From an uncultured Nitrospirales bacterium (GTDB lineage Bacteria > Hydrogenedentota > Hydrogenedentia > Hydrogenedentales > Hydrogenedentaceae): 64,000 nucleotides of DNA. Location: the NCBI GenBank assembly GCA_964549105.1, contig CAZJTZ010000001.1:284632-348631 (forward strand), read 5' to 3'. Positions 40,711 through 63,231 of the stretch are shown here, piece after piece. The notes beneath the pieces are model-generated. The model searched no databases. It was not told the DNA's origin and saw nothing but the letters and a program-made list of their open reading frames with translations. Within the stretch, counting starts at the first letter, position 1. Each line of letters opens with the position of its first letter. The position numbers and the translations under genes are program-made.

Positions 40711-41062
40711 TTACCACATTAACCCCCGTACCCTCAAAATCAAAAATAAGGATTTGTCCACATTTTGTAGGGATAGGGACTTTAAGTTCGTATAGTTTTT
40801 TTAGTAAGGGTTTGATAAATTTTTTGGGGATAGGTTTATCCGTTTTTACGGGGATATAAGGCATTTCATCTGAATTCGTAACGACAACAGCAGTAACAAC
40901 GCGTTTTGGTTCTGTAATTTCTTCATAAGCATAAACTTCGCCCCGTTCACATTTTGCTCCCTGAAACTGATATTTGCCAGGCTCCTTCTCCTGCACGAGA
41001 ATATGACAACCATTAGGACAACTTAAGCAAATAATTTCTTTTCCCATATTAGTCTTTCTCAT
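40676..41062 (-). CDS. DUF1667-domain protein (small Cys-rich subunit associated with GlpA-like oxidoreductases).
   Basis: A 128-aa protein with CPNGC…C…C. Located immediately downstream of the two oxidoreductase genes. Confidence 0.65.
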   Translation of the reverse strand: MRKTNMGKEIICLSCPNGCHILVQEKEPGKYQFQGAKCERGEVYAYEEITEPKRVVTAVVVTNSDEMPYIPVKTDKPIPKKFIKPLLKKLYELKVPIPTKCGQILIFDFEGTGVNVVITRTFPLEFEQ

Positions 41063-42324: not shown

Positions 42325-42327
42325 ATC

Positions 42328-47220: not shown

Positions 47221-47386
47221 GTTATAAGTCCCGCTTTTATGTATTTTATTAAAACATAGATTATTAACTAATATTATTTTATTTAAAATTAAGACAGTTG
47301 AACAACTCGCAGGTAGATTTATTTTTGTATAATATCTAATAATATAATTTATATTAAGAATAGGAGAAATAGTTAAAGATTAATCC

Positions 47387-49999
47387 ATGAATGAAGAAGA
47401 TAAAAGTAAAGACATAAAAGATGAAGAACAAGTAATAAGTGAATATAAGGAAAAAGTTCTTCAAGTTTTAAACCCAGAAGATAATAATTTAGATAAAAGC
47501 CACTGGGATTCTCCTGTTAAATCAGACACATCTGAAAAACAATCTCCTGAAACCCAGGAAGGAGAAATTTTAGACCAATCTGTTATAGATTCTCTATTTC
47601 AAAGCAATCAAAAGGATGGGGGCTCTGAACAGAAAAGCCAGGTTCAGGAAGAGAAATCTCAATCAACAACACAATCCAAAGAGGAAATTCTTCCCGATTT
47701 AGGACAAAAAGTTGTTGCTCCCCCTAAAAAACAAAATTCCGAAGTAGCACTCCTCAGCCAAGACGAAATAGAAGCATTAATCGAGTTGGCACAGAAAGAA
47801 GATAAAGAACGTCAGAAGAAAAAACAGGAAATATTAGAACATCTTGAAACCTCAACACAATTGACGGCTCCAATAAAATCTCAATTAAAACCAAAGATTA
47901 ATTTAAAAAAATATCTAATACCTATCACTTTAAGTTTAATATTAGGATTAGCAAGTGGTTTGGGGACTTATGTTTATCTTATGAGAAATAGAATAGCGAT
48001 TCCTGAAGAGGTAAGACCCACATATAGCAAGGATATATCTGCTGCAAAAGAATACGCCCAAATTTTAATAGAGGATAAACAATATTTTAGTGCAATATCT
48101 GTTCTAGAAGATGCTTTAAAAAATGACACAAAACCTTCCGCAGATAGAATAGACGCTCAATTTCTTCTTATAAAAGCAAAATATCTTTCAGGAAAAATAA
48201 CACCGGATTCAAGTGAATTTCAGGAACTCATATCTGACATGGAATCAGCAGTAAAAGAAAATCCTACCCATCCCATGGCTCCTCTTATTCTTTTTTGGAA
48301 AGGAAGGCTACATGAGGAAGACCATTTCCCTTATCCTGCAATAGACGCTTATGAGCGTATTATTCGGAATTATCCACAATTCGAAGCAAAAGATGAGGTG
48401 CTGTTTGCTCTAAGCCGACTCGAATTGCGAATGAATAATACAGTTAAATCGGTACAATGGGCACAACAATTAATAAAGGAATTCCCTGCATCTCGTTATG
48501 TATTGAGAGCAAGGTTTAATATTGCTGAGGCCTATAGAATAACAGGATTGATGGAAGATGCAAGAACACTATATATACGAATTGTAGATACGGCTCCCGA
48601 CACTGAGATAGCCTCTCTTGCTATATTACGCCTATCAGAGATGGCATATAATCAGGGTAGATATGAGCAAGCATTAGTTCAATTGGAAACGAAGTTAAAG
48701 CACATCAAACAGTTTCAATACAATGATGAGGCTTATCTTTTATTAGCAAAAACTTATAGGGCTCTTGGGAAATTAGAAGAAGCAAAAACAACGCTACAGG
48801 ATTTATTAGTGTTTTTTCCTAATTCCAGGGTCCATCCTCAGGCATGGATAGAGTTGAGCCAGATTTTCTATGCTCTAGGGAATAAGGAAAAAGCATTTCA
48901 AACTGCGAATGAAGCCTCTCTTCTCTACCCAAATCATCCCGAAGTGCTGGCAAACAAAGCCGATTTCCTTGCGCTACAAGGTAACACTTTCGCTTCTGCG
49001 GTTGCCTACCTTGAAGCAGAAAAGAACGGAGGAACGAATCCTTCCTACTTGTTAAAAGCAGGACAACTTTTAGTTTTATGCTCCCAATTAAATGAAGCCG
49101 TGACTACATTTGAGAAATTAAAGGACCGATACTACGGTACGAAGGAAGCACTATTAGGAAGTATTGACCGGGCTAAATGCCTATATAAATTAGGTAAAAT
49201 TCCTCTGGCTATCTCTGAACTTGAAGACTTGAAAAAACTTACCCCTTCCACTGATTCGGAATACAAAAACATACTAAAAAATTTGGCTTCTATGTATCAT
49301 GAACTCGGGCTTAAAGAAGCGGCTGTGGAAACCGCAAGTGAATGGTTCCAGATGGAAGATAATCCAGAAGAAAAAATAGAAGCAGGTCTTATTCTCCTCA
49401 ACAATGATAAAACAGAAATGGTTTATTCAAGTCTTAAAAATATTGATTTATCCCCTGTGAATAGAGAAAAGGCTCATAACTTTCTTTATTCCTTATCTAA
49501 AAAACTATTAGATAAAAATCCACCTGAAGGATTATCCCTCATTGAACAAGTTTATTATCAATATCCAGAATATCGGACACCCGAACTCCGATACTCTTTG
49601 TCCGAAGCATATATAAAAACGGAACGAACCACTTCTGCCCGTCGGATTATTCAAGACTGGGAAAATGAAGTTGGAACGAGCGAAGAGTCCGTGCGCGGTC
49701 TCATAGACGCAGAAATTATGTGGGGTGATTATATGTTTGAAATGAAAGAGTGGGATACAGCATCCAGTGCCTACAAAACAGCCATTCAAATTTCACAGAT
49801 AAAAGGCACTCCCTTACAGGGGGTAAAATATCCTATTGAATGGGCAAAATATCAATATGCAAACATACTTGTTGAAAAAACTAATTTTGAAGAAGCATTA
49901 AAAATACTTGAAGAAATTGCAAATTCAAATTCATCCATTTCTTCTATGGCACAATTAAAAATAGAACAGATAAAACTTGAAATGCTTGCAATGAAATAA
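47387..49999 (+). CDS. Membrane-anchored TPR-repeat protein (870 aa) with an acidic/Lys-rich low-complexity N-terminus.
   Basis: Single TM helix ITLSLILGLASGLGTYVYL at about residues 170-190. More than 10 TPR-like repeats follow it. Confidence 0.7.
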   Translation: MNEEDKSKDIKDEEQVISEYKEKVLQVLNPEDNNLDKSHWDSPVKSDTSEKQSPETQEGEILDQSVIDSLFQSNQKDGGSEQKSQVQEEKSQSTTQSKEEILPDLGQKVVAPPKKQNSEVALLSQDEIEALIELAQKEDKERQKKKQEILEHLETSTQLTAPIKSQLKPKINLKKYLIPITLSLILGLASGLGTYVYLMRNRIAIPEEVRPTYSKDISAAKEYAQILIEDKQYFSAISVLEDALKNDTKPSADRIDAQFLLIKAKYLSGKITPDSSEFQELISDMESAVKENPTHPMAPLILFWKGRLHEEDHFPYPAIDAYERIIRNYPQFEAKDEVLFALSRLELRMNNTVKSVQWAQQLIKEFPASRYVLRARFNIAEAYRITGLMEDARTLYIRIVDTAPDTEIASLAILRLSEMAYNQGRYEQALVQLETKLKHIKQFQYNDEAYLLLAKTYRALGKLEEAKTTLQDLLVFFPNSRVHPQAWIELSQIFYALGNKEKAFQTANEASLLYPNHPEVLANKADFLALQGNTFASAVAYLEAEKNGGTNPSYLLKAGQLLVLCSQLNEAVTTFEKLKDRYYGTKEALLGSIDRAKCLYKLGKIPLAISELEDLKKLTPSTDSEYKNILKNLASMYHELGLKEAAVETASEWFQMEDNPEEKIEAGLILLNNDKTEMVYSSLKNIDLSPVNREKAHNFLYSLSKKLLDKNPPEGLSLIEQVYYQYPEYRTPELRYSLSEAYIKTERTTSARRIIQDWENEVGTSEESVRGLIDAEIMWGDYMFEMKEWDTASSAYKTAIQISQIKGTPLQGVKYPIEWAKYQYANILVEKTNFEEALKILEEIANSNSSISSMAQLKIEQIKLEMLAMK

Positions 50000-50010
50000 G
50001 GGAACACAAA

Positions 50011-50454
50011 ATGCCATCTTCCAAAGAACAAAAAATTAAAAAATTTAATTATTGGGCACAGCGTCAAATTAAGTGGTTAGAATCACAAATTACAACTGCA
50101 GAAAAATTAAAATCTACTTTACAACAAAAACCTATTGACGAAATAGAGTCACTTGTGAGCCAACATGCAAGCCAGAGTAAGCAATTAGATACATTGATTA
50201 AGGAATACGATATTATTAAAAAAGAATTACAACAAAAAGAGCCCCATTACCAGCCTGACGCCGAAATTATATCTACTATAAAAAAATTGATTGAAGATTT
50301 AATAAAAATTAACAATGAAGTTTACCAGATTATTTTAAAACAACAAGAAAAACTCCAAAAAGAAATGGAATCATTTTTCCCCTTAAAAAATCGATTTAAT
50401 GGCTACAATTCACAAGATAAAACAAAATCAGAAAATTTGAATTATGATATCTAA
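50011..50454 (+). CDS. Hypothetical coiled-coil protein.
   Basis: 147 aa, K/E/Q-rich heptad pattern. Lies 11 nt downstream of the TPR gene and overlaps the kinase gene. Confidence 0.5.
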   Translation: MPSSKEQKIKKFNYWAQRQIKWLESQITTAEKLKSTLQQKPIDEIESLVSQHASQSKQLDTLIKEYDIIKKELQQKEPHYQPDAEIISTIKKLIEDLIKINNEVYQIILKQQEKLQKEMESFFPLKNRFNGYNSQDKTKSENLNYDI

Positions 50455-51640
50455 ACAAAAAAATAAAATGGTTTCTATCTCCCAGGAAGATTTAGAAAAC
50501 CTGACAAAAGCATTAGAAGAATTTAATCGAACCAGTAAATCATGGGAGCAAGCCTATTCCTTATTGCAAAAACAAATTGCAGAATTAAATAGCGAATTGG
50601 AGTGGAAAAACAGCGAATTGGCAATGACCTCTGAATATTTAAGCAATTTACTGGAATCCATTTCAGATGGGGTTATTGCTGTGGATTTGAATGATATAAT
50701 AAATCGCTTTAATCGTTCGGCTACTATAATCTCTGGATATAAATCTTCCGAAGTAATTGGGAAAACCTTTTCTGAAATTTTTCATCGTCCCTTTTTGATT
50801 ACAGACAGTGATGAAAATACTTATCAACTCCAAACAAAGACAGGAAGACTCATACCTATAACTGAGCGCGATTCCCTTATCACAGATGCACAGGGTGAAA
50901 TTATAGGACGGGTAAAGGTCTTTCAAGATTTGAGTGAAATACTTGAACTGAGAGCACATATCCAGCACAAAGAACGATTGGCTGTGATTGGAGAAATGGC
51001 TGCAACCATAGCCCATGAAATTCGGAATCCATTAGGAGGTATTCGAGGATTTACCTCATTTCTGGCACAAGACCTTTCCTCAGATGACCCGCGCCAGAGG
51101 TTTGTGAAAAAAATAATGCAGGGAATACAGTCTCTAGAACATATTATTAATGACCTATTAGAATACACACGCCCCATAGAGTTAAAACGAGAGAAAAAAC
51201 CTTTATCAGAATTAATAGGTGCAAGTTTAGAATTTATCTCCTACGACAAAAAAAAGATTGTAATACTGGTGCGGTGCTCACCCAAAATTATAATAGATTT
51301 AGATTTTGCTCGTATGAAACAGGTAATATCAAACATTGTTCTGAACTCCATTCAAAGTATTAACGATAAAGGAGAAATACAAATAATTGGGGAAGTGGAA
51401 GACAAGTTTGCAAGGATAGAAATCAAAGATAACGGCTGCGGAATAAAACCTGAAATATTACCTAAAATTTTTTCTCCTTTTACAACTACTAAAGAAAAAG
51501 GCACAGGTTTGGGATTAGCCCTCTGTGCTAAAATTATTGAAGCCCATGGGGGACAAATTAAAGCAGACAGCACGGTGGGTGTTGGAACTAAAGTAACAAT
51601 ATGGATACCGATTGAAGCAGATTTTCAAAATAATAGATAA
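50444..51640 (+). CDS. Cytoplasmic sensor histidine kinase (PAS-HisKA-HATPase).
   Basis: PAS-like segment (SISDGVIAVD…), H-box HEIRNPLGGIRGF, N/G1/G2 boxes (DNGCGIKPE, GTGLGLALC). No TM helices. Confidence 0.85.
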   Translation: MISKQKNKMVSISQEDLENLTKALEEFNRTSKSWEQAYSLLQKQIAELNSELEWKNSELAMTSEYLSNLLESISDGVIAVDLNDIINRFNRSATIISGYKSSEVIGKTFSEIFHRPFLITDSDENTYQLQTKTGRLIPITERDSLITDAQGEIIGRVKVFQDLSEILELRAHIQHKERLAVIGEMAATIAHEIRNPLGGIRGFTSFLAQDLSSDDPRQRFVKKIMQGIQSLEHIINDLLEYTRPIELKREKKPLSELIGASLEFISYDKKKIVILVRCSPKIIIDLDFARMKQVISNIVLNSIQSINDKGEIQIIGEVEDKFARIEIKDNGCGIKPEILPKIFSPFTTTKEKGTGLGLALCAKIIEAHGGQIKADSTVGVGTKVTIWIPIEADFQNNR

Positions 51641-51672
51641 ATCAAGATTGAGCACTGGCTAAGGGAAGAAGC

Positions 51673-53043
51673 ATGCCTAAAGCAAAAATTTTAGTGATTG
51701 ACGATGAACCTCTTATGCGTGAGTTTATAGAGGAAGCGATGACGCGTGCAGGTTATCGAGTTGTAAGTTCTGGAAACGGCGTAGAAGGAGTTGAATTTAT
51801 TAAAAACCAACCTTTCGATTTAATAATAACAGACCTAAAAATGAGCCCAGTAGATGGAATGGAAGTTTTAGGTGAAACTGTAAAAATATCTCCAGAAACA
51901 CCTGTAATTATTATGACTGCTTATGCAACAATTGATACAGCCATCGAAGCCCTGAAAAAAGGCGCTGTGGATTATTTAATTAAACCTTTCACCCCTGAGG
52001 TTATAGAAATTGCAGTAAAGCGTGTTTTAGACAAAGTCAAAATGAGTGCCGAGAATAAATTCCTCCGTTCTGAGTTAAATACCTATTTAGGCCCGCCTCA
52101 AATGATTGGGTCCAGCAAAGCAATGAAGGAACTTCATGAAAAGATAGCCAAAATTGCGGACTCTCGTTCGACCGTTCTTATTCGAGGGGAAACAGGTGTT
52201 GGTAAAGAGTTAGTCGCAAGAAGTATTCATCATATAAGTCCAAGACAAGATAAACCTTTTATAAAAGTAAATTGTGCTGCCCTGTCATCAGGAATCCTTG
52301 AAAGTGAACTTTTTGGACATGAAAGAGGCTCATTTACCGGGGCTTATGAAAGGAAAATAGGGCGTTTTGAACTTGCTAATGGCGGTTCTTTGTTATTGGA
52401 CGAAGTAAGTGAGATTCATGTGGACTTGCAACCCAAACTACTGCGTGCCCTACAAGAACGAGAGATAGAACGCGTAGGTGGAACCGAAACTATCTCTGTG
52501 GATGTTAGGATTATTGCTACCTCAAATAGAAATCTTGAAGATGCCGTAGAAAATAATTCCTTCCGTCGTGATTTATTTTATCGTTTGAATGTCATTACGC
52601 TATATGTACCTCCACTACGCGAAAGGAAGGAAGATATTCCTGAATTAGTTCATTATTTTTTGAAACGATTTTCAAAAGAGAATGGGAGAAACATTGAAAG
52701 TATTACAGAAAAGGCTATGAATCAATTTATGGAATATGACTGGCCCGGCAACATTCGCGAACTACAAAACATTATAGAACGGGCTGTTGTCCTCGCCGGA
52801 AAGAAGAAGATACTATCCGCAGAGGATTTTGAATTTTTTAAAATTCCAAGCCACACCATCAAAAATAATTCAAACCTTCAAGCAGGCATTACTTTAGCAG
52901 AAATGGAAAAAAATATTATCTTAAAAACTTTGGAACACTGTGATGGGAACAAAACAAAAGCGGCAGAAACTCTGGGTATAAGTGTCCGAACCCTCAGAAA
53001 CAAACTTCATGAATACGGAATGGTTAGAAGTCCAAACGACTAA
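51673..53043 (+). CDS. Sigma-54-dependent response regulator (NtrC family): REC + AAA+ sigma-54 activation domain + Fis-type HTH.
   Basis: Receiver VIDDEP…D…K. Walker A GETGVGKE, GAFTGA-type loop ESELFGHERGSFTGA, Walker B LLLDEV. C-terminal HTH KTKAAETLGISVRTLRNKL. Confidence 0.9.
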   Translation: MPKAKILVIDDEPLMREFIEEAMTRAGYRVVSSGNGVEGVEFIKNQPFDLIITDLKMSPVDGMEVLGETVKISPETPVIIMTAYATIDTAIEALKKGAVDYLIKPFTPEVIEIAVKRVLDKVKMSAENKFLRSELNTYLGPPQMIGSSKAMKELHEKIAKIADSRSTVLIRGETGVGKELVARSIHHISPRQDKPFIKVNCAALSSGILESELFGHERGSFTGAYERKIGRFELANGGSLLLDEVSEIHVDLQPKLLRALQEREIERVGGTETISVDVRIIATSNRNLEDAVENNSFRRDLFYRLNVITLYVPPLRERKEDIPELVHYFLKRFSKENGRNIESITEKAMNQFMEYDWPGNIRELQNIIERAVVLAGKKKILSAEDFEFFKIPSHTIKNNSNLQAGITLAEMEKNIILKTLEHCDGNKTKAAETLGISVRTLRNKLHEYGMVRSPND

Positions 53044-53064
53044 AAACAATAAATAAATTTAATA

Positions 53065-55314
53065 ATGACTCATGCGAAGCAGGTATTTTGTTTGATGAAC
53101 AAATTATTTATTAAAAAGCATAATACGAGTATATATATCTTTTTAATTTTAGCCATAGCATTCTTATTAAGAGTTATCTATTATTTTTATATTTCTAATC
53201 AAGCCGGGTTTTCTCATTTAATCTTAGACCCTCAATTTAACGACTACTGGGCACATAAAATACTTTACAGCGGGAATTTTCCTTCACCCACAGGCGAAGA
53301 CCCTATGATAGAAAAGACACCTTATGGGCGACCTCCCGGCTATCCATTCCTATTGGCTTTTATATATTTTCTTTTTGGCGATAATTATTATTCCCCACGA
53401 GTTATCCAATTTTTCGTCGGGATATTGAATGTATACTTAATTTTCTTTTTTGCCTCAAAGATATTTCATGATAAAAAGATAGGTTTGATAAGTGCACTTT
53501 TTATGGCAATACTCTGGGAACCTATATATTTTGAGGGAGAAATTAATTACCCAGTGTGGGCACTTACTTTAACGATTACACTCGTCGGAATTTCTTTGTT
53601 GTATTTGCAAAGAGAAAAAACAAAATGGGCATTTTTTATGGGGCTGTTGTTGGGATTATTTGCTCTATTCAGACCCAATGCCCTTCTCCTCTTTCCTATC
53701 TATCTAATACTCATTTTTATTAAGGTAAGAACTTCAGGCTTAAAGAAAATCGCAGCACACTTTGCACTTTTTGTAATACCCCTGTTAATTGTTATAGTGC
53801 CTGTTTTTATTAGAAACTACTTAGTCAGCCATGAGTTCTTTCTAATATCCTGTTTTGGAGGTGTGAACACTTATATAGGCAACAACCCCAAATCAACAGG
53901 AGACAGTCCCAATATCCCTGACATCATTAACCTGTGTGGCGTGGACAACTGGGACTGTTTCAACTACCGATTATTGGTGAAAGGTCTGGGAATAAAACAG
54001 GAAGGCAGACCTTACTCTTTTAGCGAAGCGTCTCATTTCTTTTATCAAAAGGCTTGTAATTTCTGGATACATGAACCTATCTCTGCTATAAAACTGACGA
54101 TCCGAAAGTTTCTATTGTTCTGGGGACCGCCCATCGTATCTGATGGGAAAGTAATTTGCTATGATAGAGATTCATCTATTCTTCGAATATTACCGGGTTT
54201 CCCCATAATATTGGGTTTATCTCTCTTTTTATTCATTTTAGTTATTTCAAAAAGGAAAAACATTTCAAGTGAATTGAAACTATCTGTTCTTTTCCTTTTT
54301 ATTTGGTGTTTTACCTATTCTTTTTCTGTCATTCCTTTCTTTGTATCAGAACGATATAGAGTGCCCATTATACCCCCATTATGTATGATGGGCGGAATTG
54401 GGTTCTCTGTATATGTCAACCACTTTGAAAAGCAAAATGCCCTTCAAAAGTTTAAAATGGCAATTATTTGTTTATTATGTTTTGCAGTTATTTACCTTAT
54501 TCCTGTAAGGTATAATCCTGAAAAGGCTCGTTGGTTTTATCATCAGGCAATAGTATCTTACAAAAGCCAGAAAGTAAATGATGCTATCTATAATGCCAAA
54601 AGGTCTATAGAAACTGACCCAAAATATTACGAAGCATATACTTTACTCGGTATAATCTCGTTAGAGCAGAAAGAACTCAAAGAATCTGAAAATTATTACT
54701 TAAAATCGCTATCCATAAACCCTGATTATGCTATGGCAACTAATAATTTAGGATATGTAATGGAATTGCAGGGGCAACTTGACCTGTCAGAAAAATATTA
54801 TAAAAAGGCATGTGAATTAAGTCCTGTTTACTCTCTGGCGTGGATTAATCTCGGACGAATTTACCTGTATCATCTGGAAAACTTTGAACAGGCAAAAAAC
54901 TGTTTCTTAAAATCTACGGAATTAGAACCCAACTCGTGGGCAGCCTGGTTCCACTTAGGAAATGTATTTGTTCAGACCCAGAAATATGATCTGGCTGAAC
55001 AATCGTTTCAAAAATCATTATCATTAAATCCAGAGAACCCCTATATACTTAACAATCTCGGATTTTTATTTATTCAAAAGCAGCAATACCCTGAAGCAAT
55101 AAATTATTTAAAGAAGTCTTTGGAAATTGAGCCAGACTTTGTTGATGCAATGTTTAATATGGCAAACGCACTAAAAGCCACGGGAAAAATTGAAGAGGCA
55201 AAAGTCTGGTATAAAAAGGTGTTAGAAAAAAATCCAGATTTTGAAGAGGCAAAGAATGAAATCAATCAATTAAATATTCAAGAAAATGATAGGCAAAAAA
55301 ACAATAATAAGTAA
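53065..55314 (+). CDS. GT-C fold polyprenyl-phosphate-sugar-dependent glycosyltransferase (PMT_2/ArnT-like, GT39/GT83-type) fused to C-terminal TPR repeats.
   Basis: Polytopic N-terminal domain with first-periplasmic-loop motif …YWAHKILYSGNF…YGRPPGYPFLLAFIYFLFG. The C-terminal roughly 250 aa carry at least six TPR units (AYTLLGIISLEQKELKESENYYLKSLSINPDY…). Confidence 0.75.
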   Translation: MTHAKQVFCLMNKLFIKKHNTSIYIFLILAIAFLLRVIYYFYISNQAGFSHLILDPQFNDYWAHKILYSGNFPSPTGEDPMIEKTPYGRPPGYPFLLAFIYFLFGDNYYSPRVIQFFVGILNVYLIFFFASKIFHDKKIGLISALFMAILWEPIYFEGEINYPVWALTLTITLVGISLLYLQREKTKWAFFMGLLLGLFALFRPNALLLFPIYLILIFIKVRTSGLKKIAAHFALFVIPLLIVIVPVFIRNYLVSHEFFLISCFGGVNTYIGNNPKSTGDSPNIPDIINLCGVDNWDCFNYRLLVKGLGIKQEGRPYSFSEASHFFYQKACNFWIHEPISAIKLTIRKFLLFWGPPIVSDGKVICYDRDSSILRILPGFPIILGLSLFLFILVISKRKNISSELKLSVLFLFIWCFTYSFSVIPFFVSERYRVPIIPPLCMMGGIGFSVYVNHFEKQNALQKFKMAIICLLCFAVIYLIPVRYNPEKARWFYHQAIVSYKSQKVNDAIYNAKRSIETDPKYYEAYTLLGIISLEQKELKESENYYLKSLSINPDYAMATNNLGYVMELQGQLDLSEKYYKKACELSPVYSLAWINLGRIYLYHLENFEQAKNCFLKSTELEPNSWAAWFHLGNVFVQTQKYDLAEQSFQKSLSLNPENPYILNNLGFLFIQKQQYPEAINYLKKSLEIEPDFVDAMFNMANALKATGKIEEAKVWYKKVLEKNPDFEEAKNEINQLNIQENDRQKNNNK

Positions 55315-55325
55315 TGGTTTGATAT

Positions 55326-57968
55326 ATGAATAAGCAAAAACGAGCAAATAGAGATTGGGTTATCCTGGCATGGATTCTTTTACTTGCCTTTGTGCTGAGA
55401 ATCATCTATTTGTGGCAGATAGTAGATGCTCCCGATTTTATTGCTCTTCGCCAGGATTTGGATGTTCAGGATTATCAAGCGAGGGCTATGTTATCTGGCG
55501 ACTGGTCTTTACGCGAAGGGGTCTCTGACCCACATATACCAACGACTCCTTATTACCGTCCCCCAGGTTATACCTACTTTCTCGCCGTTGTGTATTGGCT
55601 TTTTGATGGTTCCTACCTTGCACCTCGATTAATTCAGTTCACGCTTGGAATACTTCATATCCTCCTAATCTACTTTCTAACCAGAAAACTTTTTAATCGT
55701 GTAGCAGGTTTGTGTTCAGCATTTCTCGTCTCTATCTATTGGGCATTTATTTACTACGAGGGGGAAGTAAATGACCCTGCCCTATTTATTTTTCTCGTCC
55801 CATGTATTCTATTTTGCCTGCATTATGCAATCTCAAAAGATTTTGTGCTTTCTTCTTCCCTTTCAGGATTGCTTATTGGCGTCTATGCCATTATGCGTCC
55901 CAATATTTTGTTGTTTATCCCTTTTGTAATACTCTGGATGTTATTTATCTACTACCAAAAACGAAAATTAATAAGTTGCCTTTTTCATATCCTTTCTCTT
56001 TGTTTAGTGGCAATTGCAGTTATTTTTCCTGTAACACTTCGCAATTATCTTGTATCGGGTGAATTTGTGCCTATCTCTACCTACTTTGGGGAGAATTTAT
56101 TGATTGGGAACAGCAAAGACGCCGACGGAGTAACACCGTGGCTACCTTATCTACAAGATTTAGAAGGAACAGGAAATTGGTCTGTATGGCACTATGACAA
56201 TGTCGTCAAAGGCTTAGGTAAATCGCTGGGTAGAGAGGTAACTCATTCAGAAGCGTCAAATATTTTTGCAAAAATGGCACTTGATTATGTTATTCATCAT
56301 CCATGGAAAACCTTTGTATTAACCCTTAAAAAAGCCGTTTTGTTCTGGAGTCCAAAAGAAATAACCGAGAATAAAGTAGTAGAAGGAGAAAGACAGTATT
56401 ATATTCCTTTGAAATATCTGCCAAGATTTCCAATAGTTCTCAGTACTTTTTTGTTTGGATTGTTATTTTTACTTCACAATATATTTAGAAAGAAAGAACG
56501 AATTAAAACAGAGAATATTTATCTGCTTTCTCTTATTCTCCTATTTATTTTTAGTTATTACATTTCATTCTTGCCTTTTTTTGTAAATGCACGAGCACGC
56601 GTCCCTTTGCTGGGGATAATGCTTATCTTCGGAGGATATGGAATTGCCGAAATTATAAACCTCCTAAAAACAAAAAAAATCAAATTGGCTGTGTTAAACA
56701 ATCTGATTCTGATTTTCCTCTTTCTATTAGTTCACATTGAAATTATTCCATACAAACCTGATATGTGTCGCTGGCATTATGACCGTGCAGATTCGTTTCT
56801 TCGAGTTGGGCGTGTTGAGGAAGCTATACAGGAAGTTTATGCACTCATGAAGCAACCTGAACGACCTATGACCTATATGCCTTTCCGACTGGGGCATGCC
56901 TTTGCAAAATTAAACTATCCAGAACTTGCTGTAAATTTGTTGAGGCTTGCATTAAGCCCCGACCCATCTGAACAACCACCGATGTATCGTGAGGACATTC
57001 ATTACCACATCGGAGCCCAACTTCTAAAATTGAAACGCTACGATGAAGCCATACAGGAGTTTGAAAAAGCACTTTCCATAAATCCCAAAGACCCACGGGC
57101 TCATAATGATTTGGGGGTAATTTATAAAGACAGAGGAAATCTTCAAAAAGCAGAAAGTTATTTCATAAATTCTATTGAAATTGAACCTGAGTTTAACCTT
57201 GCCATTATTAATTTAACAGACTTGTATGTGCAGCAAAACAAATTTTTAGACGCCATACAACTTCTGGAAAAAAGCCTGAAACTAAAACCAAATGATTTAG
57301 AATTTCTCTATAATTTAGGATATGTGTATCACCTTTCTGGGCGTTACGATGAAGCCCTTACCTACTATAATAAGGTCTTATCTATAAAAAACAATGAGCC
57401 TGCAACACTTAACAATATGGCTATGATTTTTTCAGCGAAAGATGATTTTGAACAAGCCAAAAAGACTCTCCGACTGTGCATTGATAAAAACCCGTATTAT
57501 ACACTTGCTTACGCAAATTATGGGGATATTCTGTATACCGAAAATCAAAAAGTCGAAGCAGCCTATTTTTACAGTAAGGGTCTGGAAACCAATCCAGAAC
57601 ATATAGGTTTACGAATGGCTTTATCCAGAATTTATGTAGAACTTGGACAAGCAGCAAAAGGCATTTCGGAATTATTAGAAGGGTTAGATAAAAACCCATC
57701 TTCACCAGATTTATGGTTTGCCTTAGGGAATATTTATAATGGAAATAAAGAATATGATAAAGCAATTGAATGTTTTGAGAAGGTCATATCCATTGATAGT
57801 TCTTTTGTCGAGGCTTATCAAAATTTAATGGAGGTTTACCTTATAAAAAAAGACATTGATAAGGCATCGGAATTGTTAGAAAAAGCGAAACAACAAATTA
57901 AAGATTCTGAACAGATTGGATTCTTATTAGAGAAAATTCAAATAATTAAAGAAGAGAAAAACAAATGA
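55326..57968 (+). CDS. Second GT-C fold PMT_2/ArnT-like glycosyltransferase fused to C-terminal TPR repeats (paralog of the preceding gene).
   Basis: Equivalent loop motif DVQDYQARAMLSGDW…YYRPPGYTYFLAVVYWLFDG. The C-terminal roughly 380 aa carry TPR repeats. Confidence 0.75.
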   Translation: MNKQKRANRDWVILAWILLLAFVLRIIYLWQIVDAPDFIALRQDLDVQDYQARAMLSGDWSLREGVSDPHIPTTPYYRPPGYTYFLAVVYWLFDGSYLAPRLIQFTLGILHILLIYFLTRKLFNRVAGLCSAFLVSIYWAFIYYEGEVNDPALFIFLVPCILFCLHYAISKDFVLSSSLSGLLIGVYAIMRPNILLFIPFVILWMLFIYYQKRKLISCLFHILSLCLVAIAVIFPVTLRNYLVSGEFVPISTYFGENLLIGNSKDADGVTPWLPYLQDLEGTGNWSVWHYDNVVKGLGKSLGREVTHSEASNIFAKMALDYVIHHPWKTFVLTLKKAVLFWSPKEITENKVVEGERQYYIPLKYLPRFPIVLSTFLFGLLFLLHNIFRKKERIKTENIYLLSLILLFIFSYYISFLPFFVNARARVPLLGIMLIFGGYGIAEIINLLKTKKIKLAVLNNLILIFLFLLVHIEIIPYKPDMCRWHYDRADSFLRVGRVEEAIQEVYALMKQPERPMTYMPFRLGHAFAKLNYPELAVNLLRLALSPDPSEQPPMYREDIHYHIGAQLLKLKRYDEAIQEFEKALSINPKDPRAHNDLGVIYKDRGNLQKAESYFINSIEIEPEFNLAIINLTDLYVQQNKFLDAIQLLEKSLKLKPNDLEFLYNLGYVYHLSGRYDEALTYYNKVLSIKNNEPATLNNMAMIFSAKDDFEQAKKTLRLCIDKNPYYTLAYANYGDILYTENQKVEAAYFYSKGLETNPEHIGLRMALSRIYVELGQAAKGISELLEGLDKNPSSPDLWFALGNIYNGNKEYDKAIECFEKVISIDSSFVEAYQNLMEVYLIKKDIDKASELLEKAKQQIKDSEQIGFLLEKIQIIKEEKNK

Positions 57969-59152
57969 GTCTCTCTTCCAACAATATAACGAATAGCCAG
58001 AATAATGGAATAGAATTAAGCGTTATTCTTCCTTGTCTAAACGAAGAACGGACTATTGTTCAATGTATAAATAAAATTAAAGAAGTTTTAGAAAAGAATC
58101 AAATACAGGGGGAGATAATTGTAGCAGACAATAACTCCACAGACAATTCCGCTTCTCTTGCCGAGTCTGCTGGTGCTAAATTAATTCAGGTTCTTTCTCC
58201 GGGATATGGAAACGCATTGAGATATGGAATTAAAAACTCGCAGGGAAAATATATTATTTTTTTTGATTCTGATTTATCTTATGACCCGGAAGATATTCCC
58301 GCACTCCTTTCTAAATTACGAGAAGGTGCGTCTATTGTCATCGGCTCTCGGAAGAATGGGAGTATTGATAAAGGTTCTATGCCATGGCATCATAGATACA
58401 TTGGAACACCCATAATGACGCTACTTGCAAATCTCCTTTTTAAAACAAACATTTCTGATATAAACTCAGGTATGCGTGGAATGTCCCGTGAAGCCTTTGA
58501 ACGATTGGATTTGCATTCGGAAGGGATGGAATTTGCTTCTGAAATGATAGCAAAAGCATATTGGACAAAAATGGAGATTGCAGAAGTCCCCATTCATTTT
58601 CATTGTGACCAGAGAGGACGACGGCCCCACTTGCATTCCGTTCGCGATGGGTGGAGACATTTACAACTTATGTTCCATTATTGTTCTGTCAATTGGTTTT
58701 TTATCCCGGGGTTCTTATTACTGGCAGTTTCATATCTGACCTTTTTACTCCTTCCCTATTATCTAAATATCTACTCTTCTTTTTTTATTTCTTTGCTAAC
58801 AAATATTCTTGCTACAGAAATATTATTAATCGGTGTTATTGCTCAGGGTAGAGTCAGGGGCTCAAAATTTCGATATTCGCCCTCGCGGTATTTAAAGTTT
58901 CTATCAAAGGTTATCAAAGTTGAAAAGGGTATGATTCTTGGGCTAGGAATATGTGTTCTGGGTATTTTTACGGCAGTTCAATCTTTGAACTCCTCAAATG
59001 TTTTAGAAAAAAACCTATTTACTGACCCAAAATTGTTCCTATGGGGAATCTTATTTTTGGTTCAAGGTATTCAAATCTTGTTTAGTTCCATTCTAATTGG
59101 TCTATTTGGTATTCGCGTTTCTGAAGAGGAAGAATTTTTTAGAAAACTTTAA
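57965..59152 (+). CDS. GT2 polyprenyl-phosphate sugar synthase (DPM1/GtrB/ArnC-like) with C-terminal transmembrane helices.
   Basis: LSVILPCLNEERTI, ADNNSTDNS and FFDSDLSYDP (DxD). C-terminal hydrophobic helices (FFIPGFLLLAVSYLTFLLL…). Overlaps the upstream gene by 4 nt. Confidence 0.85.
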   Translation: MSLSSNNITNSQNNGIELSVILPCLNEERTIVQCINKIKEVLEKNQIQGEIIVADNNSTDNSASLAESAGAKLIQVLSPGYGNALRYGIKNSQGKYIIFFDSDLSYDPEDIPALLSKLREGASIVIGSRKNGSIDKGSMPWHHRYIGTPIMTLLANLLFKTNISDINSGMRGMSREAFERLDLHSEGMEFASEMIAKAYWTKMEIAEVPIHFHCDQRGRRPHLHSVRDGWRHLQLMFHYCSVNWFFIPGFLLLAVSYLTFLLLPYYLNIYSSFFISLLTNILATEILLIGVIAQGRVRGSKFRYSPSRYLKFLSKVIKVEKGMILGLGICVLGIFTAVQSLNSSNVLEKNLFTDPKLFLWGILFLVQGIQILFSSILIGLFGIRVSEEEEFFRKL

Positions 59153-59176
59153 TATCGTCAGGGTTATAATATTTAT

Positions 59177-60631
59177 ATGGTTCATATTGTTTTTGTAATG
59201 CCGCCTTATCCTTATTCTCAGTCCATTGGGAATCAAGGAGGAAAAAAGCAAATTGGATTGATGCCCCCTTTGGGAGTAGGGTATCTTACTGCCTATCTGG
59301 AACAGACAGGGAGATATCGTTGCAGTTTTGTAGACGCCGTTGCAGAAAGATTAACTGTCTCTGAAACAGCAAAAAGGATTATAGACTTAAAACCCGACGC
59401 TATAGGAATCTCTTCCTTTACTACTTTTTTGCTAAATTCTGCTTACGAACTTGCAACAGAATTAAAACATGCACTACCTACTACACCTTTAATTATAGGT
59501 GGACCTCACACAACCTCCTTTGGTGAACATATATTAATAGATTGTCCTGACATTGACTATGTGATACCCGGAGATGGAGAAATCCCTCTATTAGAATTAC
59601 TTGAATGCCTTCATTCAGGGAAAGAACCTAACTCAGTAAAAGGACTTATTTATAAAGATAAAGAGGGAAATATTATTGATACAGGTTGTTCTAATGTTGT
59701 TGAAGACCTGGACATTTTCCCTTTTCCTGCAAGGCATATTTATAACCAGGAATTGTATGAACCTCTACCCAGTTTAAGTCCAAAACGACCTGTTACCTCG
59801 ATGATTACATCGCGAGGCTGTCCATGGGCTCGGTGCAAGTTTTGCTATCAGGGAGGCAAGTATGCTTCCCCTTTCCGTAGAAGGTCTCCTGAAAATGTCG
59901 TTGCAGAAATAAAAGATTTGATTAAACAATATCAAATCAAAAATATCGTATTCTGGGATGACAACTTCTGTATTTACCCGGAATGGATTCACAAATTCTG
60001 TGCCCTAATGAAGCAAGAAAAAATAAATATAGATTGGTCTGTGCTTTCGCGTGTAAATACCGTAACAAAGGAAATGCTTCAAGAAATGGCAGAGGTAGGG
60101 TGTTATAGTATTCAATTTGGTATTGAATCGGGCAACCCGGAAATACTGAAACTTATTAATAAAGGGCATACCATAGAACAATGTAAAAAGGCTGTGCACT
60201 GGGCAAAAGAGGCAGGAATGGAGACTCGCGCCTTCTTTGTATTGGGTTTCCCCACAGAAACACCTGAAATGAGTGAAAAAACCATCCAATTTGCCTGTGA
60301 ACTAAATATTGATTATGTTGTATTTTTTTCTTATTATGTAGCACCGGGGACACCTCTTGCTGAAATAGCGATGCGAGAAGGACAGTGTTTTAATTTTGTA
60401 GGACAACACCTGCCCTCCTATCTTCCTAATACTTACCCTGATTTAGGAACATTAACAAAGAAAGTCCAGTCTGCATATAGAAGATACTACCTCAGACCCC
60501 GTTATTTTGCAAGAACCATTGCACGAACTATAAGAAGACCTCTCCACTTAAAAAACCAAATCAAGGCTTTCAATTATTGGCTTGGATTAAGTTTAAGAAG
60601 GTGGTCAGACACTAAAAAAACAACAGAATAA
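59177..60631 (+). CDS. B12-binding domain radical SAM protein (class B radical SAM enzyme).
   Basis: N-terminal B12-binding Rossmann-like domain (…DAIGISSFTT…IIGGPHTT…). Radical SAM core with cysteine triad GCPWARCKFC (spacing C-x4-C-x2-C as read). C-terminal region of about 150 aa. Confidence 0.75.
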   Translation: MVHIVFVMPPYPYSQSIGNQGGKKQIGLMPPLGVGYLTAYLEQTGRYRCSFVDAVAERLTVSETAKRIIDLKPDAIGISSFTTFLLNSAYELATELKHALPTTPLIIGGPHTTSFGEHILIDCPDIDYVIPGDGEIPLLELLECLHSGKEPNSVKGLIYKDKEGNIIDTGCSNVVEDLDIFPFPARHIYNQELYEPLPSLSPKRPVTSMITSRGCPWARCKFCYQGGKYASPFRRRSPENVVAEIKDLIKQYQIKNIVFWDDNFCIYPEWIHKFCALMKQEKINIDWSVLSRVNTVTKEMLQEMAEVGCYSIQFGIESGNPEILKLINKGHTIEQCKKAVHWAKEAGMETRAFFVLGFPTETPEMSEKTIQFACELNIDYVVFFSYYVAPGTPLAEIAMREGQCFNFVGQHLPSYLPNTYPDLGTLTKKVQSAYRRYYLRPRYFARTIARTIRRPLHLKNQIKAFNYWLGLSLRRWSDTKKTTE

Positions 60632-60649
60632 AGAATTACAATAAGAGGA

Positions 60650-62116
60650 TTGTTTATGAAAATGAAAATTTTTTCTATATGCTTATGTGTATCTATATTT
60701 TTACTCCTATCCTTTGTTAGAACAGGATTTTCTGAGGAGGTTTATAACATAAGCAATCGCAGGGAAATATTTATTGATAATAAGTTGATTGGATACATGG
60801 AAAATGCGTCGTTAAAATTGTGCGAACCCATTGCTGCCGAAAAAGTCTTGTATTTTGACAAACCCTGGGAAGGAAAATACAGTGGCTATATCACTTTAAT
60901 ACATGATAAAGACACATATCGCATGTATTATAGAGGACTTCCTACATCAAAACATGATGGCTCAGAAACTGAAGTTACTTGCTATGCAGAGAGTTCCGAT
61001 GGAATTCATTTTACAAAACCATCTCTTGGATTATTTGAGGTTATGGGGACAAAGGATAATAATATAGTCCTTGCCCATGACCCTCCCTTTTCTCATAATT
61101 TTGCTCCTTTTCTCGATGAAAAACCAAATATCCCTAAAGAAGAACGGTATAAAGCAGTTGCAGGTATCCATAACAGCGGACTATTTGCATTTGTCTCTGG
61201 TGATGGAATAAATTGGCAAAAGCTATCGGACCAACCTATATTAAAAGAAAAAACATTTGCACTTGACTCTCAAAATGTGGCTTTCTGGTCAATATCCGAA
61301 GGAAAATATGTTTTATATTTCAGGAGTTGGAACGGGCCTAATTCTGAATTTCGCTGGATTAGCCGAACTACAAGTACAGATTTTATAAATTGGGATGAAC
61401 CTGTTGTAATGGACAAAGGAAGTGCTCCATGGGAACATATCTATATTAACCAGACCATTCCTTATTTCAAGGCACCGCATATATATATCTCTCTGGGTGC
61501 TCGTTTTGTGCCCGGCTGTAAAGCACTTACCGATGAAGAAATCAAGTTGCTTGGTGTCGAAGAAGCCTACAGCCATGACTGTTCCGATGTTATTCTAATG
61601 AGCAGTCGTGGAAGCAATATTTATAATAGACTTTTCCTGGAAGCCTTTATCAAACCGGAATATCCCATTGAAAATTGGGTTTCTCGAACCAATTATCCTG
61701 TTCGAGGAATTGTCCCTGCGAATGATTATCAAATGGCTATCTATATCCATAAAAACTACGCCCAGGATACTGCTTATGTCCAGAGATACTTACTGCGTCT
61801 TGATGGCTTTACCTGTGTAAAAACGGGATATCTAGAAGGATTGATTAAAACCAAACCTATTATCTTTAAGGGCGAAAATCTATACTTGAATTTTGCCTCA
61901 TCCGCAGTAGGCTATATTCAGGTAGAAATACAGGATAAAGAAGGAAAACCCATCCCGGGTTATGAACTAAATGAATCTATCCCTCTCATTGGAAATAAAA
62001 TTGATATGAAACCTACATGGAAAAACAATAAAAATTTATCAGATTTGCAGGGAATACCTATCATACTCTTGTTTAAGATGAAAGATACAGACTTGTTCGC
62101 CTTTCAATTCAAATAG
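60650..62116 (+). CDS. Secreted BNR/Asp-box repeat beta-propeller protein (sialidase-like glycoside hydrolase superfamily).
   Basis: Signal peptide MKIFSICLCVSIFLLLSFV. Asp-box-like motifs SSDGIHFTK, SGDGINWQK and STDFINWDE. Confidence 0.55.
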   Translation: MFMKMKIFSICLCVSIFLLLSFVRTGFSEEVYNISNRREIFIDNKLIGYMENASLKLCEPIAAEKVLYFDKPWEGKYSGYITLIHDKDTYRMYYRGLPTSKHDGSETEVTCYAESSDGIHFTKPSLGLFEVMGTKDNNIVLAHDPPFSHNFAPFLDEKPNIPKEERYKAVAGIHNSGLFAFVSGDGINWQKLSDQPILKEKTFALDSQNVAFWSISEGKYVLYFRSWNGPNSEFRWISRTTSTDFINWDEPVVMDKGSAPWEHIYINQTIPYFKAPHIYISLGARFVPGCKALTDEEIKLLGVEEAYSHDCSDVILMSSRGSNIYNRLFLEAFIKPEYPIENWVSRTNYPVRGIVPANDYQMAIYIHKNYAQDTAYVQRYLLRLDGFTCVKTGYLEGLIKTKPIIFKGENLYLNFASSAVGYIQVEIQDKEGKPIPGYELNESIPLIGNKIDMKPTWKNNKNLSDLQGIPIILLFKMKDTDLFAFQFK

Positions 62117-62130
62117 TAAAGAAAGGAACT

Positions 62131-63231
62131 GTGTATATGCTTCTTTTTATTCTATTATCCTTTACTTGCTTTTCTAATCAAGATATGAATATTGAGCAAG
62201 TCCCTTTTTACAAAGATAAAACGAATCTGCTCTACTATATTGACAAATCAGGAGAGATTCAAAAGATAAGAAATAAAACAGACTGGGCTATAAGAAAAAA
62301 TCATATTCTCAATAATATGCTTCTGGTCATGGGTCATTTACCAAATCGCTCTTCCCTACCTCCATTGGATATGGAAATTGAAAATGTAGAAGATATGAAC
62401 ACTTATTGGAGAAAGAAGATTTGGTTTAATGCAGAACTGAATGACCGACTTTCTGCATATCTATTAGTTCCTAAAAATATTGATAGAAAATTGCCTGCAA
62501 TTGTTTGCTTACATCAAACAGTAGACATAGGAAAAGCAAGTCCCGTAGGAATAGGGGACCATAAAAATCGTCACCTGGCAAAAGAATTGGCAGAAAGGGG
62601 TTATATTGTAATTGTTCCAGATTATCCGGGTTTTGGTGAATATAAAGTTGATGTATATACAATGGGATATGCAAGTGCAACGGCAAAGGGAATCGGGAAT
62701 CATCGGCGATGTATTGATTTACTTCAATCGTTAGAGGAAGTAGACCCTGAGAGAATAGGTGCGATAGGACATTCATTAGGTGGACATAATACGCTATTCC
62801 TTGGTGCTTTTGATGAACGGATAAAGGTAATGGTAACCAGTTGCGGGTTTACAAGTATGAAAAAATATTACAATGGTAATTTAACAGGTTGGTCACATAA
62901 AGGATATATGCCGCGTATTGCAGAGAAATATCAATGCAATCCAGACTTACTTCCCTTTGATTTTACAGAAGTTCTCGGTATACTTGCTCCCCGTCCTGTC
63001 TTTATAAATGCCCCTTTACATGACCATAATTTTGAAGTAACAGGGGTAGATGATTGTGTTTCATCTGCGAAAAAGGTTTATCAACTATTTAACGCTGAAG
63101 ATAAAATCCAGGTAGTTCATCCCGATTGTGGCCATGATTTTCCCCCTGAAACTCGAGAAGAAGCATATCGTTTTTTAGATAAATATTTGCAGTTTACACC
63201 AAAAATTTCAACTATTTCTAATCTCTTTTAA
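62131..63231 (+). CDS. Secreted alpha/beta hydrolase (dienelactone-hydrolase / acetyl-esterase-like).
   Basis: GTG start. Signal peptide. Nucleophile elbow IGHSLGG. C-terminal HPDCGHDFP (catalytic His context). Confidence 0.7.
   Translation: MYMLLFILLSFTCFSNQDMNIEQVPFYKDKTNLLYYIDKSGEIQKIRNKTDWAIRKNHILNNMLLVMGHLPNRSSLPPLDMEIENVEDMNTYWRKKIWFNAELNDRLSAYLLVPKNIDRKLPAIVCLHQTVDIGKASPVGIGDHKNRHLAKELAERGYIVIVPDYPGFGEYKVDVYTMGYASATAKGIGNHRRCIDLLQSLEEVDPERIGAIGHSLGGHNTLFLGAFDERIKVMVTSCGFTSMKKYYNGNLTGWSHKGYMPRIAEKYQCNPDLLPFDFTEVLGILAPRPVFINAPLHDHNFEVTGVDDCVSSAKKVYQLFNAEDKIQVVHPDCGHDFPPETREEAYRFLDKYLQFTPKISTISNLF

Follow-up and report, generated by a model that had tools for sequence, protein, structure and literature searches.

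The 64,000-nucleotide (nt) stretch of DNA analysed here (the window; contig CAZJTZ010000001.1 of assembly GCA_964549105.1) carries at 47387-63231 ten plus-strand open reading frames (ORFs), g1 to g10, at exactly the coordinates given in a first-pass annotation made from the letters alone. Their successive spacings (11, -11, 32, 21, 11, -4, 24, 18 and 14 nt) bear out the geometry described there, namely ten co-directional genes that overlap or lie at most 32 nt apart, and matches to Pfam, NCBIfam and structures upheld nine of its ten domain calls, the BNR call for g9 being the exception. Gene content, predicted folds and a comparison of related loci indicate that the cluster is a composite of three separable blocks, A (g1-g4), B (g5-g8, the constant core) and C (g9-g10), and we consider it probable that block B encodes the core of a lipid-carrier-dependent extracytoplasmic glycosylation system of the three-component type. 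The genes are as follows.

47387-49999, plus strand: g1, membrane-anchored TPR protein of 870 amino acids (aa), with Pfam matches to TPR families, YfiO and TPR_21
50011-50454, plus strand: g2, helical coiled-coil-like protein of 147 aa, overlapping g3 by 11 nt
50444-51640, plus strand: g3, soluble PAS-HisKA-HATPase_c histidine kinase (Pfam) with no transmembrane (TM) segment
51673-53043, plus strand: g4, NtrC-type sigma-54 enhancer-binding response regulator with REC, AAA+ and HTH_8 domains
53065-55314, plus strand: g5, GT-C (PMT_2) glycosyltransferase of 749 aa fused to a C-terminal TPR array (PMT_2 45.6 bits, plus TPR families)
55326-57968, plus strand: g6, paralogous GT-C/TPR glycosyltransferase of 880 aa (PMT_2 above cut-off; predicted model)
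57965-59152, plus strand: g7, GT2 glycosyltransferase of the polyprenyl-phosphate-sugar synthase type (Glycos_transf_2 107 bits), overlapping g6 by 4 nt
59177-60631, plus strand: g8, class-B (B12-binding) radical SAM enzyme (B12-binding 65 bits, Radical_SAM 101 bits)
60650-62116, plus strand: g9, secreted five-bladed beta-propeller with a beta-sandwich (AlphaFold2 (AF2) model with a predicted local distance difference test (pLDDT) score of 91.8; Foldseek)
62131-63231, plus strand: g10, secreted alpha/beta-hydrolase, carbohydrate-esterase-like (Pfam Peptidase_S9, GCE_fung, AXE1 and DLH)

Block B opens with two genes that had been described as paralogous PMT_2 GT-C glycosyltransferases carrying TPR arrays, a description that both Pfam and the predicted model support. 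The two proteins are 32% identical to each other, and homologues of g5 (44-65% identity) occur in all loci of the Hydrogenedens clade. In the model of g6, 11 TM helices are followed from about residue 480 by a TPR array predicted to form a periplasmic superhelix, and the positively charged N-terminus is placed inside in the predicted topology. The PMT_2 match and the predicted fold identify g5 and g6 as GT-C-fold transferases with a predicted extracytoplasmic active site. Residues D44, D49, R78-P80, E145, P192-N193, R239-N240 and R425-P427 are invariant in the family, the first six of these groups lying in predicted loops, and this pattern fits an active enzyme. Hundreds of GT-C/TPR homologues, all unnamed, were found in Hydrogenedentota, Zixibacteria and Auribacterota, mostly standing alone in their genomes, and no characterised member of this bacterial family was found among them.

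The neighbouring g7 combines four C-terminal TM segments with a DxD motif (DSD, within FDSDLSYDPED), the pairing of motif and membrane anchor that marks membrane-anchored polyprenyl-phosphate-sugar synthases. Its best solved relatives are the Pyrococcus furiosus DPMS (5mlz; E 1e-17), ArnC and GtrB sll0501; its relatives carry PF26629 (GT2_TM_C), and PgfS is among its NCBIfam matches. The initial assignment to the DPM1/GtrB/ArnC type of GT2 is thus confirmed by Pfam and by solved relatives. The resemblance to ArnC, the fact that PMT_2 covers ArnT-like enzymes and the label ‘ArnT family’ attached to some homologues in the sources would also suit an ordinary ArnC/ArnT locus for lipid A aminoarabinose, the case that the first-pass annotation had raised against its own proposal. 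We reject this scarcely credible alternative: the score against the ArnC family NF007986 is 47.9, compared with a cut-off of 529, and there is no ArnA/B/D/E/F-like gene among the window genes screened.

The last gene of block B, g8, has an N-terminal B12-binding domain, a SAM core and a three-cysteine motif, and these Pfam domains and cysteines corroborate the earlier identification of a class-B radical SAM enzyme. The cluster motif, CPWxxCxFC (window 59819-59845, residues 215-223), has the spacing CX4CX2C instead of the canonical CX3CX2C and is invariant in 21 members that are 40-80% identical. The family is essentially confined to Hydrogenedentota. Its nearest solved structures are AprD4 (the closest), OxsB and TokK, and among NCBIfam models no equivalog was reached, with BchE at 183.8 against a cut-off of 481, HpnJ at 183.4 against 578 and the others relatively lower. 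HpnJ acts on lipid-linked glucosamine. AprD4, GenK, GenD1 and HpnJ resemble g8 in combining B12-binding and radical SAM domains and are earlier examples of radical chemistry at the carbons of sugars, among them, in the case of HpnJ, a lipid-linked one. Of these, GenK and GenD1 are B12-dependent C-methylases that act on the sugars of aminoglycosides (PMC4340712, PMC4039129). The named sugar-acting families differ from g8 in that it scores at most 183 bits against their cut-offs of 481-750, and in the CX4CX2C motif.

The likeness to HpnJ invites a second alternative, in which the locus would serve a lipid head-group pathway similar to that of the hopanoid proteins HpnI, HpnJ and HpnL, with the GT2 adding a sugar to a membrane lipid, the B12 radical SAM enzyme rearranging this sugar and the GT-C genes being unrelated neighbours. 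HpnJ is indeed one of the two best NCBIfam matches of g8, at 183 bits, and related loci encode a flippase-like LPG_synthase_TM protein, from the family of HpnL. However, the HpnJ score is far below its cut-off and equalled by that of BchE, g7 matches DPMS, ArnC and GtrB instead of HpnI or HpnB, neither a squalene-hopene cyclase nor an hpnH-type context was seen among the screened genes, and GT-C genes recur beside the radical SAM family of g8, all of which make such a pathway very unlikely.

To place these genes in context, we compared 167 related loci (designated L plus a number), anchored on g8, the GT-C domain and g9 and scored by tblastn and hidden Markov model (HMM) searches. Relatives more than 40% identical come essentially all from metagenome-assembled genomes of Hydrogenedentota. 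In the genus-level clade, where g8 is at least 71% identical, the arrangement is a REC-only regulator on the minus strand, g1-g10 on the plus strand and then, all on the minus strand, a third GT-C, a second B12 radical SAM enzyme, WbuX, HisF2, HisH and a carbamoyltransferase. The complete order was found in L087 (71%; the downstream genes lie on the same contig in L013), L089/L108 and L093, and a partial one in L092, L008, L010, L012, L015, L090 and L091. The synteny comparison proposed in the first-pass annotation therefore traces the full ten-gene order to 71% radical SAM identity.

The same comparison separates the blocks. Block A is kept in most Hydrogenedens genomes and absent from L007, L094 and L095, in which the flank of TrpD, fucosidase and REC genes runs straight into g5 and blocks B and C are retained. 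In L007, representing this block-A-less lineage, REC and g5 are separated by a 305-nt AT-rich spacer (3638-3942); BLASTN of the window intergenic regions against this REC-GT-C spacer detected no similarity outside coding DNA, which leaves the deletion end-points unmapped. As the full order is present in L087, which diverges most among the members, the absence of block A is best read as a derived deletion, and block A appears from this distribution to be ancestral to the Hydrogenedens clade and dispensable. A different kind of loss is seen in L001 (GCA_017880035.1; 8816-14820), where the GT2 gene and the third GT-C gene are each split in two, g9 is reduced to fragments (29-42% identity) and neither g10 nor the second radical SAM gene is present, a state that reflects either gene decay or a frameshift error in the assembly.

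The most persistent association is that of the GT2 with the radical SAM enzyme. The first-pass annotation had singled out a GT2 of the polyprenyl-phosphate-sugar class lying beside GT-C genes and a class-B radical SAM gene; this combination is real, and the GT2-radical SAM pair is kept down to 57% radical SAM identity, in L002, L004, L009, L016, L018 and L019 (57-63%), where it alone of the cluster persists. In L002 and L009 the pair is convergent with WbuX, HisF and HisH genes, and elsewhere it lies beside other PMT_2 genes. Still more distant loci (L029, L036 and L039; approximately 40-45% identity) carry a relative of the second radical SAM enzyme, a g8-like one and a GT-C/TPR gene in the same direction, in a different gene order, an independent recurrence of the combination, and L039 additionally has a GT2.

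The 3' boundary initially placed at 63231 did not hold, being set by the window; the locus runs past base 64000, starting with a convergent gene.

63218-64000, minus strand: 3' portion of the gene for a third GT-C-like membrane protein, truncated where the window stops (ORF 63218-63958)

This ORF is 54-60% identical to genes of L007, L008, L010 and L012, and in relatives the protein is 719-734 aa long, with a weak PMT_2 match in L087. Beyond it, the convergent arm of the relatives (L007 14040-21464; L087 17791-22481) comprises the second B12 radical SAM enzyme, WbuX, AglZ/HisF2, HisH and a NodU-like carbamoyltransferase, as well as a small radical SAM enzyme and the flippase-like LPG_synthase_TM protein. 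In these relatives WbuX reaches 215.9 bits (cut-off 203.2) and the acetamidino-modification protein AglZ/HisF2 328.9 bits (cut-off 310). By this comparison, the window appears to show about half of a glycan-building locus of 25-30 kb.

In its make-up, block A resembles an accessory module for signalling, with g1 as periplasmic TPR sensor, g2 as coiled-coil adaptor, g3 as soluble PAS kinase and g4 as enhancer-binding protein (EBP). The four products had been identified in the same terms, as a TPR protein, a coiled-coil protein, a soluble PAS kinase and an NtrC-type activator, and Pfam and the translations agree, with the correction that the sigma-54 contact loop called GAFTGA-type reads GSFTGA in g4. 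In g1, an acidic N-terminus of approximately 175 aa, predicted to be cytoplasmic, is followed by one TM segment at 178-196, with positive charges on its N side (positive-inside), and by approximately 670 aa of YbgF/BamD-type TPR predicted to be periplasmic; the YbgF-type TPR model of NCBIfam gives 101.7 bits, and the protein is a candidate sensor or scaffold of the block. The sole Pfam match of g2, to FlgN, is sub-threshold (20.9 bits against a cut-off of 30.5). Homologues of g1 (44-67% identity) and g2 (52-55%) hold equivalent positions in relatives. The kinase g3 is generic NtrB/AtoS-like by NCBIfam (299 bits against a cut-off of 646), and g4 has the full complement of an NtrC-family regulator beside its kinase, with Pfam Sigma54_activat at 232 bits, Response_reg at 99.5 bits, HTH_8 at 61 bits, an AAA-lid and a Walker A motif reading GETGVGKE; no NCBIfam equivalog cut-off was reached.

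A large TPR protein encoded with a kinase and a sigma-54 EBP beside surface-glycan genes recalls the PrsK/PrsR/PrsT triad of PEP-CTERM/XrtA systems (TIGR02916, TIGR02915 and TIGR02917, respectively). We rejected this identification because the family cut-offs were missed: g4 scores 404.3 on PrsR against a cut-off of 502.6, no better than on AtoC, ZraR or NtrC, g3 scores 98.4 on PrsK against 300, and g1 has no match to PrsT. XrtA and PEP-CTERM genes were not seen here either.

The first-pass annotation had placed all ten genes in one unit under this dedicated sigma-54 pair, as a complete periplasmic protein glycosylation system whose glycans g9 and g10 would trim. The tight spacing of all ten genes, the persistence of their order in most Hydrogenedens-clade assemblies, including one at 71% radical SAM identity, and the credentials of g4 as a bona fide EBP speak for such a unit. 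The scan for -24/-12 elements that had been suggested does not. Across the window, the consensus TGGCAC-N5-TTGCW with up to two mismatches occurs 27 times, compared with 23 ± 6 expected by chance, and none of the matches is usefully placed. The 166 nt upstream of g1 (47221-47386) contain no GG-N10-GC on either strand, and in the internal gaps the only such strings overlap the start codons of g2 and g4. A single positionally conserved match, at 60346 within the PGTPLA codons of g8, came from a weighted scan for GG-N10-GC in the window and seven relatives, and we rejected it as coding constraint; it is also present in L001, where g9 is fragmentary and g10 lost. Two candidate sites at the 3' end of g4, which coincide with the peptide motifs EYDWPG and QAGITLA, were discarded as well, as their synonymous positions vary or the site is absent in relatives; the EYDWPG match follows conserved codons and the QAGITLA one is not conserved. 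The sigma-54 target of g4 is not visible within the window.

Instead, alignment of the REC-g1 intergenic regions points to a promoter of another type.

47298-47333, plus strand: conserved promoter region of g1

It comprises a TTGAACAACT box at 47298-47307 and an extended -10 element, TG at 47326-47327 followed by TATAAT at 47328-47333, 54 nt ahead of the g1 ATG. The box and TTTTTGTATAATAT are common to the REC-g1 spacers of the window, L089, L091, L092 and L093, and the extended -10 element (TGTATAAT) is additionally present in L087, that is, conserved across six genomes. Lying 18 nt upstream of the -10, the box is too distant for a -35 element and may therefore be an operator. The cluster is accordingly predicted to be fronted by a conserved sigma-70-type extended -10 promoter. 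A generic sigma-70 and terminator scan gave counts equal to the shuffle level and was uninformative. With this promoter ahead of g1, the deletion of g1-g4 from three loci that keep the left flank and the glycosylation genes and the lack of any two-component genes near the GT2-radical SAM pair in the distant Hydrogenedentota (g8 57-63%), a single sigma-54-controlled unit has become improbable. The regulatory account is corrected to that of a removable sigma-54 pair with no visible target in the locus.

Block C calls for a similar revision. The first-pass annotation had described g9 as a secreted BNR/Asp-box beta-propeller; a secreted beta-propeller it is, but it has no Pfam match at all, BNR included, its motifs have the form SxDGxxW/F in place of the BNR SxDxGxTW, and Foldseek relates it to five-bladed GH130 phosphorylases, GH43 and GH32/68 enzymes and BT_0996, with a C-terminal beta-sandwich. 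We therefore rejected a six-bladed sialidase of the BNR/Asp-box kind. More than 6400 homologues at approximately 50% identity occur across Bacteroidota, Planctomycetota, Acidobacteriota and other phyla, with no Pfam model to cover them, and judging by the modelled fold they probably constitute an unclassified family of glycoside hydrolases or phosphorylases. The other half of the block, g10, is the secreted serine esterase that had been proposed, an alpha/beta hydrolase with a GHSLGG nucleophile motif that, among solved proteins, comes closest to CE15 glucuronoyl and acetyl-xylan esterases.

What block C does is a separate matter. We examined two g9 loci outside Hydrogenedentota, both from Bacteroidota: in one (L086, 6001-7458) the gene lies directly behind SusC/SusD, in surroundings like those of a PUL, and in the other (L085, 6001-7458) next to a BNR_2 protein. 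The spread of the family across phyla and, in one of these two loci, the SusC/SusD context point to glycan catabolism. This suggests, weakly, that the hydrolases break glycans down and do not trim the product of the system as had been supposed, and it also counts against the ten-gene sigma-54 unit; a catabolic role for g9-g10 is the more likely.

From this gene content we infer a route, its chemical steps and acceptor alike, for the glycosylation core formed by block B. On the cytoplasmic face, g7 would charge polyprenyl phosphate with a sugar taken from a nucleotide sugar, and g8 would tailor that sugar, on the nucleotide or on the lipid, by C-methylation, rearrangement or dehydration. A flippase encoded outside the window would then move the donor across the membrane, where g5, g6 and the third GT-C would attach the sugar to acceptors in the periplasm, which the TPR arrays would select or scaffold. 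The convergent arm would add further sugar tailoring through the WbuX/HisF2/HisH acetamidino triad, the NodU-like carbamoyltransferase and the second B12 radical SAM enzyme. Block A would be transcribed from its sigma-70-type promoter, and block C would supply a secreted pair of carbohydrate-active hydrolases.

Several observations weigh against this interpretation of the locus. The GT-C domain matched no sequence in the PDB, either as a single sequence or as a 12-member profile, so that the GT-C assignment rests on Pfam PMT_2 and the predicted fold; a profile of the full-length GT-C/TPR protein retrieved only TPR proteins among the best 60 PDB matches listed, and the family appears remote in sequence from every solved GT-C. 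The window contains no flippase gene (GtrA, MATE or SMR); none of the ten genes qualifies, and the LPG_synthase_TM protein of the relatives scores 34.9 bits, below its cut-off of 43.2. Some 70 distant GT-C/TPR homologues from metagenomes (at most 54% identical) almost never have a GT2 or radical SAM gene within 10 kb, so the link between the GT-C/TPR proteins and the GT2-radical SAM pair is restricted to one lineage, a feature of Hydrogenedentota, and could partly reflect inherited synteny. Block A adjoins block B in about a dozen assemblies, and regulation of block B by read-through or through an unrecognised site is possible. Finally, most Hydrogenedens loci retain g9-g10 beside g8, which makes it possible that these two also take part in the system.

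The architecture of g6, an 11-TM domain of the GT-C/PMT clan followed by an extracytoplasmic TPR array, matches that of the eukaryotic protein O-mannosyltransferases TMTC1-4, for which a topology of 11 TM segments and luminal TPRs has been described (PMC7801869), and a polyprenyl-phosphate-monosaccharide donor is expected for both. The differences are that the sequence similarity detected is limited to PMT_2 and that the host here is a bacterium. The DUF1736 signature of the TMTC loop between TM7 and TM8 had no match in g5 or g6 at E ≤ 0.01 (for g6, among the best 25 of 45 families) and is absent from the precomputed Pfam lists of the GT-C/TPR homologues. The relation to TMTC is one of analogy or very distant homology, not of membership.

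With that reservation, the TMTC-like architecture, together with known protein O-glycosylation by GT2/GT-C pairs (PMC12041528), makes a protein acceptor plausible, and by this analogy, which extends to the TPR array of OGT, we tentatively suggest an envelope protein as the acceptor of block B. A surface glycan or lipid is possible though doubtful, as polysaccharide tailoring involves acetamidino and carbamoyl genes just as typically and TPRs serve as scaffolds. The corresponding alternative keeps the same core chemistry, directs it, for example, at lipopolysaccharide core, O-antigen, exopolysaccharide or peptidoglycan and gives the TPRs the part of periplasmic scaffolds, as in AlgK, BcsC, PgaA and PilF, in place of that of protein-substrate binders. 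TPR arrays do scaffold exopolysaccharide and pilus machines, and AlgK, PilF and PilW were among the search matches obtained here; we place this alternative on the unlikely side. Less likely again is the most far-reaching version of protein glycosylation, a bacterial counterpart of the eukaryotic TMTC pathway formed by block B and the convergent arm, in which TPR-guided GT-Cs would O-glycosylate particular proteins of the periplasm or outer envelope with a monosaccharide that B12 radical SAM enzymes had tailored, for example by C-methylation, on the lipid or the nucleotide, and that was perhaps amidinated or carbamoylated as well, and in which the TPR-sensor/sigma-54 module might tune expression or activity. 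If it were true, the radically tailored donor chemistry would be undescribed for any GT-C system.

Actinobacterial Ppm1/Pmt is a GT2 and GT-C pair for the O-glycosylation of exported proteins. So are the streptococcal GtrB/PgtC2 and Pgf systems (PMC12041528). In all of these, as proposed for block B, a DPM1/GtrB-like GT2 makes a lipid-linked monosaccharide donor for a GT-C, but their GT-Cs lack TPR arrays, they involve no radical SAM tailoring, and the scores obtained here are far below the family cut-offs. Three-component periplasmic glycosylation is represented by GtrA/GtrB/Gtr*, ArnC/ArnEF/ArnT, CsbB/GtcA/YfhO and the GT136 pentofuranose systems (PMC11127046). Block B resembles these in the TM-anchored GT2 next to GT-Cs, implying cytoplasmic donor synthesis and extracytoplasmic transfer, and differs in the lack of a GtrA, MATE or SMR flippase in the window, in the long TPR arrays on its GT-Cs, in having two or three GT-Cs per GT2 and in the B12 radical SAM enzyme tightly paired with the GT2. 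A search of one open-access collection of papers turned up none that deals with Hydrogenedentes glycosyltransferases of such a type, with bacterial PMT_2-TPR proteins or with a cluster combining GT-C and B12 radical SAM genes. We read the locus as a system of the known three-component type whose novelty would lie in the TMTC-like GT-C/TPR transferases and in the coupling of B12 radical SAM enzymes to the donor synthase.

GT-C/TPR fusions are common in uncultured and environmental bacteria, and as most of them stand alone, neither donor nor partner can be guessed. Among the few exceptions is the Hydrogenedens locus, in which such proteins are accompanied by a probable donor synthase, a carbamoyltransferase, an acetamidino triad and two B12 radical SAM enzymes. 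The locus is therefore a practical starting point for heterologous reconstitution, aimed at the identity of the sugar, the radical SAM chemistry and recognition by the TPRs.

The host is an uncultured, genus-level relative of Candidatus Hydrogenedens terephthalaticus, the nearest named genome (L012), whose g8 is 79% identical, and there is a 100%-identical metagenome contig of 10 kb (L088, Ga0116191_1004399). Exact-sequence look-ups of g8, and of a protein that matches it at 100% identity, gave no record. The G+C content of the region is even, at about 35-37%, and neither Rfam, at its gathering thresholds, nor a tRNA scan gave a match in the window. The cluster is flanked by ordinary chromosomal genes. 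Immediately to the left, all on the minus strand, are TrpD, a GH29 fucosidase and the REC-only regulator, which diverges from g1.

46312-47220, minus strand: REC-only response regulator of 302 aa (Pfam Response_reg 81 bits)

The C-terminal half of this protein (approximately 180 aa) has no family match. Wherever the flank of a relative extends far enough, the gene lies to the left of the locus, also in the block-A-less lineage of L007 and L094; it is a conserved neighbour whose membership of the system is uncertain.

Farther left in the window lie PlsX, polyphosphate kinase, RadA, a GH38 mannosidase and a C25 peptidase. The last is a gingipain-type enzyme of 1168 aa with a propeptide domain (30374-33880, minus strand), of which Pfam covers only about the N-terminal half. 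A protein of 805 aa, in which eight LysM repeats come after an SLT lytic transglycosylase domain, is followed by the GH38 alpha-mannosidase (240-2657 and 3439-6570, respectively); with the GH29 fucosidase at 44931-46295, these genes make the region rich in glycan-active enzymes. At 40676-43800 on the minus strand, a DAO/BFD-type FAD oxidoreductase, a pyridine-nucleotide-disulphide oxidoreductase and a DUF1667 protein stand in a row, which is the layout of an anaerobic glycerol-3-phosphate-dehydrogenase-like trio.

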